Part shown: piece after piece, positions 60,468 through 63,896 of the stretch | How the letters are laid out: each line of letters opens with the position of its first letter | Position numbering within the stretch: position 1 is the stretch's first letter | Origin: Ohtaekwangia sp. | GTDB taxonomy: Bacteria > Bacteroidota > Bacteroidia > Cytophagales > Cyclobacteriaceae | Assembly: GCF_036568665.1 (NCBI RefSeq) | Contig: NZ_DATCSD010000313.1 | Location: 1,569-65,568, forward strand | DNA: 64,000 nt | Direction of reading: 5' to 3' | Notes under the pieces: model-generated | Told to the model about the DNA's origin: nothing | Database searches by the model: none | Seen by the model: only the letters and a program-made list of their open reading frames with translations | Made by a program: the position numbers and the translations under genes

Positions 60468-60881
60468 ATGCATGCATCTTACCAACACAATACGCCACCA
60501 GTTATTTCTGTAATGCTGGCAGTATCAGACACTCCTAAAGCTGTTGCCTGGTACAAAGAGGCATTGGGAGCTACAGAGTTATGGAACTTAGGCTCAGTCG
60601 CGGGATTACAAATTGCCGGAGCTCCTTTCTTTTTGGGCGAGCCAGCAGCAAATGGTTGGGAAAGTCCAGCCAAGCTTGGCATCACTTCTGCCCGCATTGA
60701 AGTTTTCTGTGATGATCCGGATGCTTTCATTACTCGTGCGGTGAAGTGTGGTGCAAATGGTGACTTCGATCCTATCCGGAATCACGAAGCTCTGTGGGGT
60801 ATTCACCGACAAGGAGGATTTATAGATCCCTTTGGTCACATCTGGTTGATTGGTGATCGATCTCCTCTACAAGTTTATTAA
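60468..60881 (+). CDS. VOC/glyoxalase (PhnB-like) protein
   Basis: ML.VSD...AVAWYKEALGA.E, DDPDA...RAV..GA, WG.R.G...DPFGHIW.I. Confidence 0.88.
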   Translation: MHASYQHNTPPVISVMLAVSDTPKAVAWYKEALGATELWNLGSVAGLQIAGAPFFLGEPAANGWESPAKLGITSARIEVFCDDPDAFITRAVKCGANGDFDPIRNHEALWGIHRQGGFIDPFGHIWLIGDRSPLQVY

Positions 60882-61195
60882 TTTACATAAGATACCGGGC
60901 ATAGAGATTTACGAATCGGTGAATACAGGTCGCTCCTGAATGTGGAAGCAAACATCTATATACCTAACACGTCCAAATGACGCTTATAAAAGAAAGCCCT
61001 TTACAACAAAGAAATGTTCCTCTTGCAGAACTGATTCTACCATTAGAAGCTTAACTCCATGTATTTTAAATCATTTTTTATATTTTACAGGCTAAGTTAT
61101 AACGTGAAGCTGCAAACATCTTATAAATCATTGAGTTCATTTTCTGTACATACGCTCAGACTGTTAATCAACCCGCATCGGATCGCACTAACCTG

Positions 61196-62296
61196 ATGAG
61201 TAACAAATCTATCTACTTTTCTGGCTTAAACGGTTTACGAGCAATTTCAGCCATAGCTGTTGTCGTTTCTCATACAACACTAAGTTTGAAGGAGTTCAAT
61301 CTGGATCCCTTTTTATTTGGCGTGTCGCAAGAAGGAAAACCTCAGGGCCTTTCACTTGCTGGATATGGAGTGAGCATATTTTTCGTTCTAAGTGGTTTTC
61401 TGATAACCTTCTTGTTGCAAACAGAAAAAGATATACAGGATATTAATATCAAAAATTTTTACACAAGAAGAATCCTCAGAATCTGGCCGCTGTATTATTT
61501 ATATATAGGTCTATATATAGTAACGATGCTTATATATGGCATTTGTATCGACTGGCAAACTCTTCTATACTATATTTTGCCGGCTGCCAATATTCCTTTT
61601 ATCACCGGAGGGAGCACCGTGGGGCTCTTATCTCATTACTGGTCTTTAGGCGTAGAAGAACAATTCTATCTGTTTTGGCCCTGGCTCAATAAAAAAGCAA
61701 CTATGCTGTTATCGCTCGCAATAACACTCATTATCATTTTGATCAGCGCCAAGACTGTTCTCCATCTGTTTTATCCAAATTCCATTTGGGAAGTATCCAT
61801 ACACATTACCCGATTTCATTGTATGCTGATAGGAGCAGCCGGAGCATTGCTATATAAAAATAAAAACACATTATTCCTCGCACTGGTGAATAACAAATTA
61901 ACGCAATCTGTTTGCTGGGTGATCATTTTCCTGGTTGCCATCAATAAATATCATATAGCTTCCTTCATTGATAACGAGATTATTTCTGTAGTAGCACTAT
62001 GTTTAATTATCGGGCAGATTGAGATTAAAAACAGAATGGTGAATTTGGAAGTAGGCCTCCTCGATTTCCTGGGAAGAATTTCTTTTGGAATATATGTTCT
62101 CCATCCGTTACTTATATTCTTCATTTCGAAATTACTCCCGGATATGACTATATATTTACCACTCCGGTATATTATTGTTTATTTACTTATACTGACAACA
62201 ACCATTTTCTTTTCCTATCTATCCTATAGATACTTTGAAAAGTACTTTCTAAATTTCAAAACAAGATTTGAAATTGTAAAAGGGTACAAGAATTAG
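61196..62296 (+). CDS. Acyltransferase family 3 (OafA-like)
   Basis: LNGLRAI.A..VVV.H, GV.IFFVLSGFLIT, FY.RR.LRIWPLYY, HYWSLGVEEQFYL.WP, LG.ISFGIY..H. Confidence 0.93.
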   Translation: MSNKSIYFSGLNGLRAISAIAVVVSHTTLSLKEFNLDPFLFGVSQEGKPQGLSLAGYGVSIFFVLSGFLITFLLQTEKDIQDINIKNFYTRRILRIWPLYYLYIGLYIVTMLIYGICIDWQTLLYYILPAANIPFITGGSTVGLLSHYWSLGVEEQFYLFWPWLNKKATMLLSLAITLIIILISAKTVLHLFYPNSIWEVSIHITRFHCMLIGAAGALLYKNKNTLFLALVNNKLTQSVCWVIIFLVAINKYHIASFIDNEIISVVALCLIIGQIEIKNRMVNLEVGLLDFLGRISFGIYVLHPLLIFFISKLLPDMTIYLPLRYIIVYLLILTTTIFFSYLSYRYFEKYFLNFKTRFEIVKGYKN

Positions 62297-62353
62297 ATAA
62301 CAGGCTTCATCTTTGAAGAGAACCTACATTGCTCACATGGGCTATAAACATTA

Positions 62354-62875
62354 ATGATCGATAACTATATTATCCGAAGCGCAACACCAGACGAGTTCTC
62401 TCTAATTGGCAGACTCATGGTAAAGGTGTATTCGGGACTGGAAGGCTTCCCAAAAGAATCTGAACAACCTAATTACTACCGCATGCTCGCCAATGTAGGT
62501 GAGCTTACCACTAAACCGGATACAGATATACTCGTAGCCGTTTCATTAACCGGTACTATAGCTGGAGCAGTTGTATATTTTGGCGACATGAAATATTATG
62601 GTTCTGGTGGCACTGCTACACAAGAACAAAATGCTGCCGGGTTCAGACTGCTGGCGGTGGATGATCTAGCGCGCGGGCAAGGTATCGGTAAATTGCTAAC
62701 GCTTGCCTGCATAAAAAAAGCAAAAGAACAGAAACTCCTGCAGCTGATCATTCATACTACTATGGCCATGCAAACCGCCTGGAAGATGTATGAATCACTA
62801 GGGTTTAAAAGATCCGAAGATCTTGATTTTATGCAGGGAGAATTACCGGTGTTTGGTTTTAGATTAATGTTATAA
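62354..62875 (+). CDS. GNAT-family N-acetyltransferase
   Basis: RLLAV...ARGQGIGK.L acetyl-CoA motif, A.KMYESLGF.R. Confidence 0.9.
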   Translation: MIDNYIIRSATPDEFSLIGRLMVKVYSGLEGFPKESEQPNYYRMLANVGELTTKPDTDILVAVSLTGTIAGAVVYFGDMKYYGSGGTATQEQNAAGFRLLAVDDLARGQGIGKLLTLACIKKAKEQKLLQLIIHTTMAMQTAWKMYESLGFKRSEDLDFMQGELPVFGFRLML

Positions 62876-62885
62876 CCATGCGACT

Positions 62886-63485
62886 ATGGGCTTAGATAGC
62901 GTAGCACTTATCGTAGATATAGAAACACACTTCGACATTACCATTCCCAACAAAGAGGCCGAGAAAATATATACCGTTCAGGACATAGCGGACTGTGTTG
63001 TTAACAAAGTAACCATACATCCAAGCGATAAATGCAAATCTCAGATTCTATTCTATAAATTCAGAAATTACTTTATACAAAGATTTCCCACCAATGAAAA
63101 TGAATTTAAGCCTGACTCCAAATTAACGGACTGGATTCCACGGAATGAATTGAAAGATACCTGGGCAGATATAGCAAGTAAGCTTGACATTGAATTGCCT
63201 TACCTCTCGCCTTTAGATCTTGATCCTTCAAAACCCAGGGAAATTAAGTTTTTATGGATAACAATCGATACCCACACAGAATTACTGACCGATGATGCTA
63301 CCGCAAGCAAATTGATACAATGGACTTTATCCTTAAATCACAAAAAGCTTATTGATCCAAAAAATCTTTGTAGCAAACAAGATATAGAAAATATAGTTAT
63401 CGGTATTGTTAGTGAATCTGTGGGCCTCCATGTTCAGGAGATCAAACTGGAACATGTGTTGACCAATGATTTAGGAATTGATTAA
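62886..63485 (+). CDS. Acyl-carrier-protein-like protein, apparently circularly permuted
   Basis: N-terminus MGLDSVALIVDIETHFDITIPNKEAEKIYTVQDI matches ACP helices II-IV. C-terminus IVSESVGL..QEIKLEHVLTNDLGID* matches ACP helix I and loop. Confidence 0.7.
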   Translation: MGLDSVALIVDIETHFDITIPNKEAEKIYTVQDIADCVVNKVTIHPSDKCKSQILFYKFRNYFIQRFPTNENEFKPDSKLTDWIPRNELKDTWADIASKLDIELPYLSPLDLDPSKPREIKFLWITIDTHTELLTDDATASKLIQWTLSLNHKKLIDPKNLCSKQDIENIVIGIVSESVGLHVQEIKLEHVLTNDLGID

Positions 63486-63608: not shown

Positions 63609-63639
63609 AAAAAAATTGCAGGGATTTTTCACCCTGCAA
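63609..63639 (-). terminator. Intrinsic terminator
   Basis: TTGCAGGG/CCCTGCAA 8-bp stem with an A7 tract on the left (U-tail on the minus strand). Confidence 0.75.
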
Positions 63640-63671: not shown

Positions 63672-63896
63672 TTATTGAGCTTCACCAGCAGCTTCCAGTG
63701 CAAGTTCTTCAGTAGTAGAGTTGTCACCATTCTCTTTCGCTGGCTTCACTTTCTTAACGGACTTGTCAACAATTTTCTCAAGTGCACCAATAGCTTCCTG
63801 AACAGGCTTCAGTTTCGACATCAGTTCAGCTTCTTCTTCTTTCAATTTTTTCAATGCATCAATCACCGGGTTCTCTTTTGCAATTTCCTTGGCCAT
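63672..63896 (-). CDS. Small charged coiled-coil hypothetical protein
   Basis: 74 aa, K/E-rich heptad pattern, AT-rich leader and its own terminator. Confidence 0.65.
   Translation of the reverse strand: MAKEIAKENPVIDALKKLKEEEAELMSKLKPVQEAIGALEKIVDKSVKKVKPAKENGDNSTTEELALEAAGEAQ

Follow-up and report, generated by a model that had tools for sequence, protein, structure and literature searches.

A circularly permuted acyl carrier protein-like family with its chain ends at the phosphopantetheine site

Introduction

Few small proteins have been studied as thoroughly as acyl carrier proteins (ACPs), which are defined by a single serine, the bearer of the phosphopantetheine arm. What use could there be for an ACP surface that cannot carry? 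This question was raised by an open reading frame (ORF) at positions 62,886-63,485 of a 64,000-nt stretch of DNA from Ohtaekwangia sp. (RefSeq assembly GCF_036568665.1, contig NZ_DATCSD010000313.1, positions 1,569-65,568 of the forward strand), hereafter called the window. A protein with such a surface could act as a regulator, a decoy or an adaptor, or it could rely on a new attachment chemistry.

An earlier note, made by eye, had described the ORF as a circularly permuted ACP, whose two ends are complementary halves of one ACP fold around a central segment of about 125 aa of unknown sequence. It had taken Ser5 as the phosphopantetheinylated residue and had suggested a dedicated acyl-transfer route with the OafA-like and GNAT genes upstream, with the caution that this adjacency may be chance. 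In the present study, we analyzed the sequence, the homologues, the predicted structure and the genomic context of the ORF.

Results

Sequence Analysis of the Permuted ACP

The protein begins with MGLDSVALIVDIETHFDITIPNKEAEKIYTVQ and ends with ...GLHVQEIKLEHVLTNDLGID-stop, and an in-frame stop at 62865-62867 excludes a longer N-terminus. Pfam matched residues 2-41 only, on the C-terminal half of the PP-binding models (PP-binding_2, model positions 48-87). The NCBIfam ACP models matched the protein in two stretches, the N-terminal one placing residues 3-41 on model positions 39-77. All ACP model scores were below the curated cut-offs, including NF002148 (51 vs. 71 bits), TIGR00517 (44.2 vs. 70.45), PF00550 (18 vs. 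20.8) and PF14573 (28.9 vs. 32). A family profile of 24 members was searched against PDB sequences. It aligned residues 165-198 with positions 6-39 of the PDB ACPs and residues 2-40 with positions 40-78, with E values down to 6.5e-16. The similarity to the ACP four-helix bundle therefore covered the whole bundle in two separate stretches, and no collinear I-II-III-IV match in one stretch rose above a curated cut-off.

The two halves were re-joined in silico by placing the C-part (residues 161-199) before the N-part from Gly2. The re-joined sequence aligned without gaps over 70 residues with E. coli AcpP and over 76 residues with the AcpP of the host genome. At the junction, ...TNDLGID/GLDSVAL... 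was aligned with ...VEDLGAD/SLDTVEL..., so that D199/G2 fell on AcpP D35/S36. In the same gapless alignment, L3-D4-S5-V6-E7-L8 corresponded to AcpP L37-D38-T39-V40-E41-L42, and the register was anchored further downstream by F16 (F50), P21 (P55) and E26-K-I-x-T-V-Q32 (E60-K-I-T-T-V-Q66). Helices II-IV come first and helix I comes last, between a start of M-G-L-D-(S) and an end of D-L-G-x-D-stop. Judged by these alignments, whose similarity is far beyond chance, the ORF is a circular permutant of an AcpP-type ACP. The ORF and the permutation seen by eye were borne out, as was the observation that the C-terminal DLGID stops one residue before the serine, with D199 as the D35 equivalent.

The alignment places Gly2 on Ser36, the phosphopantetheine site. 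In this register, the canonical serine is gone and the cofactor site is replaced by the chain ends. The serine of the D-S-L motif at the N-terminus of helix II, which is required for membership in the ACP family, was found neither in the outer domain (Gly2) nor in the middle domain (E88). Among 183 full-length members, position 2 was Gly in 176, Ser in six and Ala in one, and all three residues permit removal of the initiator Met. Because position 2 was always one of these residues, the mature N-terminal α-amine and the C-terminal carboxylate would meet at the former cofactor site.

The same register places Ser5 at the equivalent of Thr39, three residues away from the modified serine, so the assignment made in the earlier note was not sustained. 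Ser was found at position 5 in 147 of the 183 members; the other 36 (about 20%) carried T, G, M, L, F, Y or I. This variability excludes Ser5 as a modification site common to all members. Of 73 canonical ACPs, most carried Thr and none carried Ser at the corresponding position 39. The features of the ORF are listed in Table 1.

Table 1. Features of the permuted ACP gene and their positions in the window.
Feature	Position	Strand	Evidence
Whole ORF, 199 aa and TAA stop; permuted serine-less protein, probably a double ACP-like one	62886..63485	+	ORF list, sequence, homologues, AlphaFold2
N-part, residues 1-43: initiator Met, Gly2 at the Ser36 position, helices II, III and IV (equivalent to AcpP 36-77)	62886..63014	+	Pfam, NCBIfam, PDB ACP alignments, Foldseek, gapless alignment
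Middle, residues 44-160: probable degenerate serine-less second ACP-like domain	63015..63365	+	hhalign, Foldseek, secondary structure
C-part, residues 161-199: helix I and loop I, end D195-L196-G197-I198-D199 (AcpP D31-D35)	63366..63482	+	Profile, gapless alignment
TAA stop, adjoining the codon of the D35-equivalent Asp and in place of the Ser36 codon of canonical ACPs	63483..63485	+	Sequence

Size and Conservation of the Family

A word-indexed search returned 58 proteins, namely the 100% self match and 57 homologues of 191-236 aa, nearly all of 197-198 aa. The genera Muricauda, Polaribacter, Mesonia, Zunongwangia, Nonlabens, Winogradskyella and Psychroflexus were among them. Some of these proteins are named "phosphopantetheine-binding protein" or "acyl carrier protein" by NCBI, and these labels are probably wrong as to function. 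An exhaustive search yielded 1591 representatives at E <= 1e-3, the weakest of which probably include ordinary ACPs, and 227 at E <= 1e-10. The family therefore comprises at least 227 clusters at 50% identity at the latter threshold. The window protein was 41-59% identical to 50 full-length members.

With evident gene fragments set aside, practically every member starts with M-G-L-D and ends with D-L-G-x-D-stop. Among the 183 full-length members, the start was conserved as M1 (183), G2 (176), L3 (180) and D4 (182). The C-terminal Asp was present in 132, and nearly all ended within the DLGxx motif. Conservation at each position was calculated from a member set non-redundant at 80% identity, and the most conserved positions were M1, G2, L3, D4, L8, E13, F16, T30, W93, P105, N151, G180, D195, L196 and G197. 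E13 (E47) and F16 (F50) were conserved at 100%, D195, L196 and G197 at 99-100%, and L8 (L42), T30 (T64) and G180 (G16) at 92% or more, while W93, P105 and N151 of the middle were nearly invariant. The start codons varied synonymously between homologues (ATGGGACTA, ATGGGTTTA, ATGGGCCTT and others), which indicated that the constraint acts on the protein. Members diverged to as little as 27% identity kept the length, the start and the stop, without frame disruptions.

The members occur in three forms. The soluble form of about 197 aa has the full middle domain. In the form of about 232 aa, part of the middle is replaced by two transmembrane (TM) helices. In the mini form of 87-94 aa, both ends are joined by a short linker: members P0124, P0169 and P0184 have MGLDS, helices II-IV, a linker of 8-15 residues, and helix I with DLGxD. 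Since the mini forms keep both ends, the two ends form one unit, for which the middle is dispensable. The mini members also look as if the middle domain had been deleted in frame.

No Pfam, NCBIfam or PADLOC model exists for a permuted serine-less ACP family, and a literature search turned up no relevant paper on natural permuted ACPs, ACP cassettes or apo-ACP toxicity. These results pointed to a large undescribed family that is plainly derived from ACP. It should not be filed as ACP, since collinearity, the DSL serine and a score above the curated cut-off are all missing. The earlier note had named a one-off fusion of tandem ACP fragments as the case that would speak against a genuine permutant; this is not the case, for the architecture is kept in hundreds of clusters.

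Predicted Structure and the Middle Domain

An AlphaFold2 model was calculated with a 24-sequence alignment. The model was confident as a single unit, with a predicted local distance difference test (pLDDT) score of 83.4 and a predicted TM-score (pTM) of 0.81, in line with the permutation. The predicted helices comprised residues 3-16, 22-25 and 31-39 in the N-part, 51-66, 86-100, 109-112 and 140-150 in the middle, and 164-179 in the C-part, with a β-hairpin insert at 119-128. The high pTM, the retained helix-I core residues (I167, V171, I174, I175, G180, I181, I186, F192/L192 and L196) and the mini forms suggested that the outer bundle closes. Together with the alignments, the model and the mini forms agreed with the earlier description of the two ends as complementary halves of one ACP fold.

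Foldseek aligns sequentially and is thus blind to permutation. Its matches were mostly ACPs and fell into two classes. The first class fitted the N-part over about 40 columns, with 45% identity and a root-mean-square deviation of 0.8-1.6 Å to AcpP structures (about 1.2 Å). The second class covered about 100 columns with 10-12% identity and a TM-score of 0.58-0.67 normalized to the ACP, and it fitted the middle domain.

The middle domain was further compared using hhalign. Its profile matched the canonical ACP profile with 78% probability and an E value of 1.8e-5 (middle 11-62 on ACP 3-57). This match ran from helix I through loop I and helix II to the conserved I-P motif, with P105 on P55. Against the re-joined outer domain, hhalign gave a weaker match in two collinear pieces. 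A 39-sequence middle profile searched against the PDB gave the ACP 8gsa as the top match (E = 0.21), and the same structure also gave the best Foldseek TM-score. At the Ser36 equivalent, the middle domain has E88 in the window protein and D, N or E across the family. From four signals that are independent and agree, though each is modest, the middle is probably a degenerate serine-less second ACP-like domain. The large central segment described earlier was thus confirmed at a slightly smaller size, about 117 aa instead of about 125, and it is probably no longer of unknown sequence. The whole protein would then have the order II-III-IV / I'-II'-III'-IV' / I, probably as two nested ACP-like four-helix bundles, which is the expected product of a tandem ACP array truncated at both ends.

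Genomic Neighborhoods and Distribution

About 20 neighborhoods were compared. A search of the genome contigs for related loci was dominated by ordinary acpP genes, since one of its search patterns also matches canonical ACPs, and it contributed nine usable full-length loci. None of the neighborhoods contained fab, pls, polyketide synthase (PKS), nonribosomal peptide synthetase (NRPS) or dedicated phosphopantetheinyl transferase (PPTase) genes, so the genomic association of ACPs with such genes was missing. The neighborhoods were mutually unrelated and had no conserved partner gene. Outside cassettes, some members stood by themselves in housekeeping surroundings, for example between valS and the his operon in Terrimonas or upstream of a transglycosylase gene. 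Canonical acpP genes were kept elsewhere in the host genome.

In the window, the GNAT stop lies 10 bp upstream of the permuted ACP ORF, and from this spacing, both are probably transcribed together in the window genome. The permuted ACP was present in 5 of 20 congeners. In three of them, it is flanked by a DUF6000 (or other small) gene on one side and by the gene of a small TM protein on the other, with a rhodanese gene next in line; in a fourth, it adjoins a DUF1801 gene. Six congeners have GNAT orthologues; two of these also carry the permuted ACP, at a place unlinked to the GNAT gene, and other congeners have the GNAT gene without the permuted ACP. The adjacency with OafA-like and GNAT genes was confined to the window genome and was absent from all other examined loci, five congeners included. 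Hence the dedicated acyl-transfer route found no comparative support, given the unlinked genes in congeners, the single-gene cassettes described below and the unrelated neighbors.

Several further arrangements were observed in these regions. Loci L095 (520-3413), L093 and L096, from three congeners, contained a co-directional block of an XRE-type helix-turn-helix (HTH) gene (86 aa), DUF6000 (203 aa), the permuted ACP, a 120-aa protein with an N-terminal TM segment and a rhodanese sulfurtransferase; the DUF6000 gene was missing in one of the three. In congener locus L107 (1038-1997), about 140 bp separate the glyoxalase gene from the adjacent GNAT gene, and no OafA gene lies in this gap. In the window (60468-62875), a 366-aa Acyl_transf_3 (OafA-like) gene at 61196-62296 sits between the two. 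The adjacency in the congener suggested that the OafA-like gene is also a lineage-specific insertion. One congener GNAT orthologue (L110, G010:C15:386577-387086) has an in-frame TAG and is possibly a pseudogene.

The distribution was rare and patchy. The gene was found in at least 4 of 400 other genomes sampled across the phylum, a lower bound because eight candidates were scored per genome, and one copy was located on a 357-kb Persicobacter replicon. The gene is thus a rare accessory gene. Because it occurs as a single-gene cassette in several lineages and has no conserved partner, its product must work alone or with housekeeping host proteins.

Integron Cassettes in Relatives

In Muricauda ruestringensis, Polaribacter, Mesonia and Croceitalea, the gene was found inside strand-specific arrays of attC-like sites. 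A regular expression built from the observed Flavobacteriia sites detected 12 sites on the plus strand and none on the minus strand in 16.6 kb of locus L004, and nine and none in L003. Loci L091 and L005 were settled by reading the intergenic sequence. A strict RYYYAAC/GTTRRRY pattern with a minimum-free-energy pairing test, as well as a duplex-energy screen, missed evident attC sites and were dropped. Each R' box has a 4-nt tail that matches the R'' box of the next site, and the 5' end of the cassette (TTGGCAAAC...) can base-pair with the R'' region of that same cassette. This pairing rule is the signature of integron cassettes. The cassette unit carries the permuted-ACP ORF alone, and both the single ORF and the attC pairing with its own 5' end were observed in L001, L003, L004, L010 and L091. 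In Muricauda (L001), the cassette directly follows a tyrosine recombinase gene in the same orientation as the cassettes. The recombinase resembles integron integrases and matched TIGR02249 in two stretches with 197 bits, below the cut-off of 265. The closer relatives L091 and L005, whose proteins are 54-57% identical to the window protein, are also attC-bounded cassettes with a different attC type.

The two attC types were also described individually. The sites of the Flavobacteriia arrays (L004 1-16594 of Polaribacter sp., L003, L001 6733-10174 of Muricauda ruestringensis, L010 and L011) are about 130 or 195 nt long. Their consensus is xxxxAAC-ACCGTATATA ... CATATACA-ACAACGTTxxxx, which obeys the circular-cassette rule, and the cassettes of these arrays encode TIR-TPR, SLATT, SMI1/SUKH, PLD and AAA proteins. 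The second type (e.g., GGCTGGCAAC-AAAGTGCATAA ... TTATGCAC-AAACGTTGTAGG) was found in L091 1-10608, a metagenome contig, and in L005 8598-11601. It separates 14 small same-strand ORFs, nearly all of unassigned function, in an arrangement like that of clusters of attC sites lacking integron-integrases (CALINs), with no integrase in view. Translation around the circular cassette was considered and rejected, because about 200 nt of attC lie between the stop and the start.

The window copy has no attC site on either side: its 3' flank showed no fold (z = +1.05), and neither inverted repeats nor a match to the regular expression were found near the gene. No integron integrase was found within about 4 kb upstream or 0.7 kb downstream (the contig end), the part of the window that was screened for recombinases.

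Discussion

Comparison with Known Systems

AcpP (PF00550, TIGR00517/PRK00982) shares about 45% identity with the permuted protein over helices II-IV, and both outer halves are AcpP-like. The kept residues include the DLGxD loop, L37, D38, E41, L42, E47, F50, I54, P55, E60, I62, T64, V65 and Q66. The permuted protein differs from AcpP in the order II-III-IV...I instead of I-II-III-IV, in the replacement of Ser36 by the chain termini, in the nested second domain of about 117 aa, and in its location outside fab and lipid gene clusters. Tandem and doublet ACPs, such as the prodigiosin doublet (PDB 5y08) and the tandem ACPs of polyunsaturated fatty acid synthases, likewise have two ACP-like bundles per polypeptide or locus. 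However, the known tandem ACPs are collinear with a DSL serine in each bundle, whereas in the permuted family one bundle is nested and the serine is missing from both. Circular permutation classically arises by duplication and subsequent truncation, and by this route, with both ends trimmed, tandem ACPs could plausibly have given rise to the family. Tandem canonical acpP pairs, 50-115 nt apart and just upstream of fabF, were observed in Terriglobales and Acidobacteriota genomes (L030 5761-6435, L072 5890-6494, L081 5797-6431, L089 5782-6456 and L052 4999-5652). Fusion and truncation of such a pair could give rise to a permuted ACP.

The Flavobacteriia and metagenomic homologues resemble the promoterless cassettes of sedentary chromosomal integrons and CALINs in being single-ORF and attC-bounded. 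The window copy departs from these in having no attC on either side, and the Muricauda recombinase in scoring under the IntI cut-off. Laboratory apo-ACPs (S36 mutants), known as inhibitors of ACP-client enzymes, likewise present an ACP surface without a cofactor attachment site and are the functional analogy on which the mimic proposal below draws, but those are mutants of the collinear AcpP. No natural dedicated serine-less ACP mimic was found in the literature searched.

A Cofactor-Less ACP Mimic and Its Alternatives

We tentatively favor, at somewhat less than an even chance, the reading that the protein mimics ACP in a permanently "apo" state and docks to proteins recognizing ACP helix II. 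The gene encodes a stand-alone cytoplasmic protein, whose AcpP-type outer bundle is opened exactly at the D35/S36 peptide bond with loss of the cofactor serine. The mimic might dock on fatty-acid or lipid enzymes, on a phosphopantetheinyl transferase, or on an ACP-binding regulator or toxin, and it would serve as an adaptor, competitor or decoy rather than as an acyl carrier. The two-TM subfamily would play the same role at the membrane. The proposal rests on strong purifying selection on the AcpP recognition surface in a protein that lacks the cofactor site; the conserved surface comprises the DLGxD of loop I, the helix II equivalents of D38, E41 and E47, as well as F50 and I54/P55. Keating, Carey and Cronan (J Biol Chem 1995) reportedly found that unmodifiable or apo AcpP is a potent inhibitor of E. 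coli growth, acting through ACP-client enzymes. If so, a serine-less ACP can be biologically active.

Several observations weigh against the mimic. Ser5 is 80% conserved and Ser is far commoner than Thr, above neutral expectation, so this residue may be important, perhaps because it is modified. Toxicity would be expected of a general ACP competitor, and this is hard to square with carriage in a one-gene cassette without an antidote. No homologue was found in phage records, and no PADLOC or PHROG-type defense annotation supported a decoy role. The soluble proteins had no PADLOC match, and the TM variant had one weak match to "2TM effector" (E = 0.006), which was not relied on.

Less likely than the mimic, but still deserving serious consideration, is that the ACP fold is a mere scaffold and that the middle domain, with W93, P105 and N151, acts on a target outside the ACP clients, for example as an orphan immunity or antitoxin-like protein or a small regulator like those that populate cassette arrays. 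The neighbors include TIR, SLATT, SUKH/SMI1, Abi_alpha and PLD-type cassette genes, with DUF6000 and HTH genes in congeners, and the nearly invariant residues of the middle are kept in both the soluble and the TM subfamilies. This account is weakened by the mini forms, which have no middle, and by the strongest conservation, which lies in the AcpP-like termini and helix II rather than in the middle; moreover, no cognate toxin gene is linked. It appears improbable that the protein is a holo-carrier, in which Ser5 of G-L-D-S would be phosphopantetheinylated by a host PPTase, and which would then shuttle acyl groups for the adjacent OafA-like (Acyl_transf_3) and GNAT enzymes. G-L-D-S-V-E does resemble G-x-D-S-L-D, Ser5 is the majority residue (80%) and would be one turn of helix II away from the Ser36 position, on the same helix face, and the GNAT gene ends 10 bp upstream and is probably co-transcribed. 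Nevertheless, the gapless register puts Ser5 at the Thr39 position, the residue at this place is T, G, M, L, F, Y or I in 36 of the 183 members, the OafA/GNAT adjacency is absent from all other examined loci, five congeners included, and the cassette copies carry no acyltransferase gene.

Attachment of a group to a chain end was given marginally less weight than the use of Ser5. The purpose of the permutation would then be to bring a free terminus to the top of helix II. The Gly2 α-amine, after Met removal, or the Asp199 carboxylate would be the site, for example for an N-acyl group added by a GNAT-type N-terminal acyltransferase. The termini are extremely conserved and exactly placed, position 2 is limited to G, S and A, all of which permit Met excision, six members have Ser at position 2, the true Ser36 position, and a GNAT gene lies directly upstream in the window genome. 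On the other hand, no modifying enzyme co-occurs with the family, the GNAT gene is unlinked in congeners, and we know of no precedent for attachment chemistry at a chain terminus in ACPs. A slightly fainter prospect again is a phosphopantetheine-free carrier, in which evolution would have opened the backbone exactly at Ser36 so that a free chain end (the Gly2 amine or the Asp199 carboxylate) comes to lie at the mouth of the acyl pocket, and an acyl or other group bound directly to this end would still be presented to ACP-client enzymes through the intact helix-II surface; the GNAT 10 bp upstream could then be the N-terminal acylating enzyme. The idea of a non-functional remnant, left by chance when tandem ACP gene fragments were fused in frame or truncated, has almost no probability left. 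Tandem acpP genes do occur naturally, as at the Terriglobales loci, and duplication with truncation is a route to permutation. Against this, hundreds of members diverged down to 27% identity keep the length, the start and the stop, conserved codons vary synonymously, and the fold prediction is confident; the conservation effectively refutes the remnant.

Significance

Whichever role applies, this is a large natural family in which the AcpP surface is strongly selected, the backbone is cut at the serine, the serine is lost and a second, dead ACP-like domain is probably nested inside. It would also illustrate, in a clean natural case, how duplication and truncation can produce a circular permutant. 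Carriage as a single-gene cassette in several lineages indicates that the protein is autonomous and offers a handle for functional screens.

Other Candidates and Features near the Gene

Cys50 was considered as an alternative thiol and was rejected, because it is kept in only 48% of members. An N-myristoylation-type motif was likewise rejected, since its spacing does not fit; to our knowledge, bacteria have no NMT. Downstream of the permuted ACP gene, a 74-aa Lys/Glu-rich ORF, probably a coiled coil, was found at window positions 63672-63896 on the minus strand. It is convergent to the permuted ACP gene and gave no family match. A hairpin, GCAGGGATTTTTCACCCTGC, at 63618-63637 is common to the permuted ACP gene and this convergent ORF.

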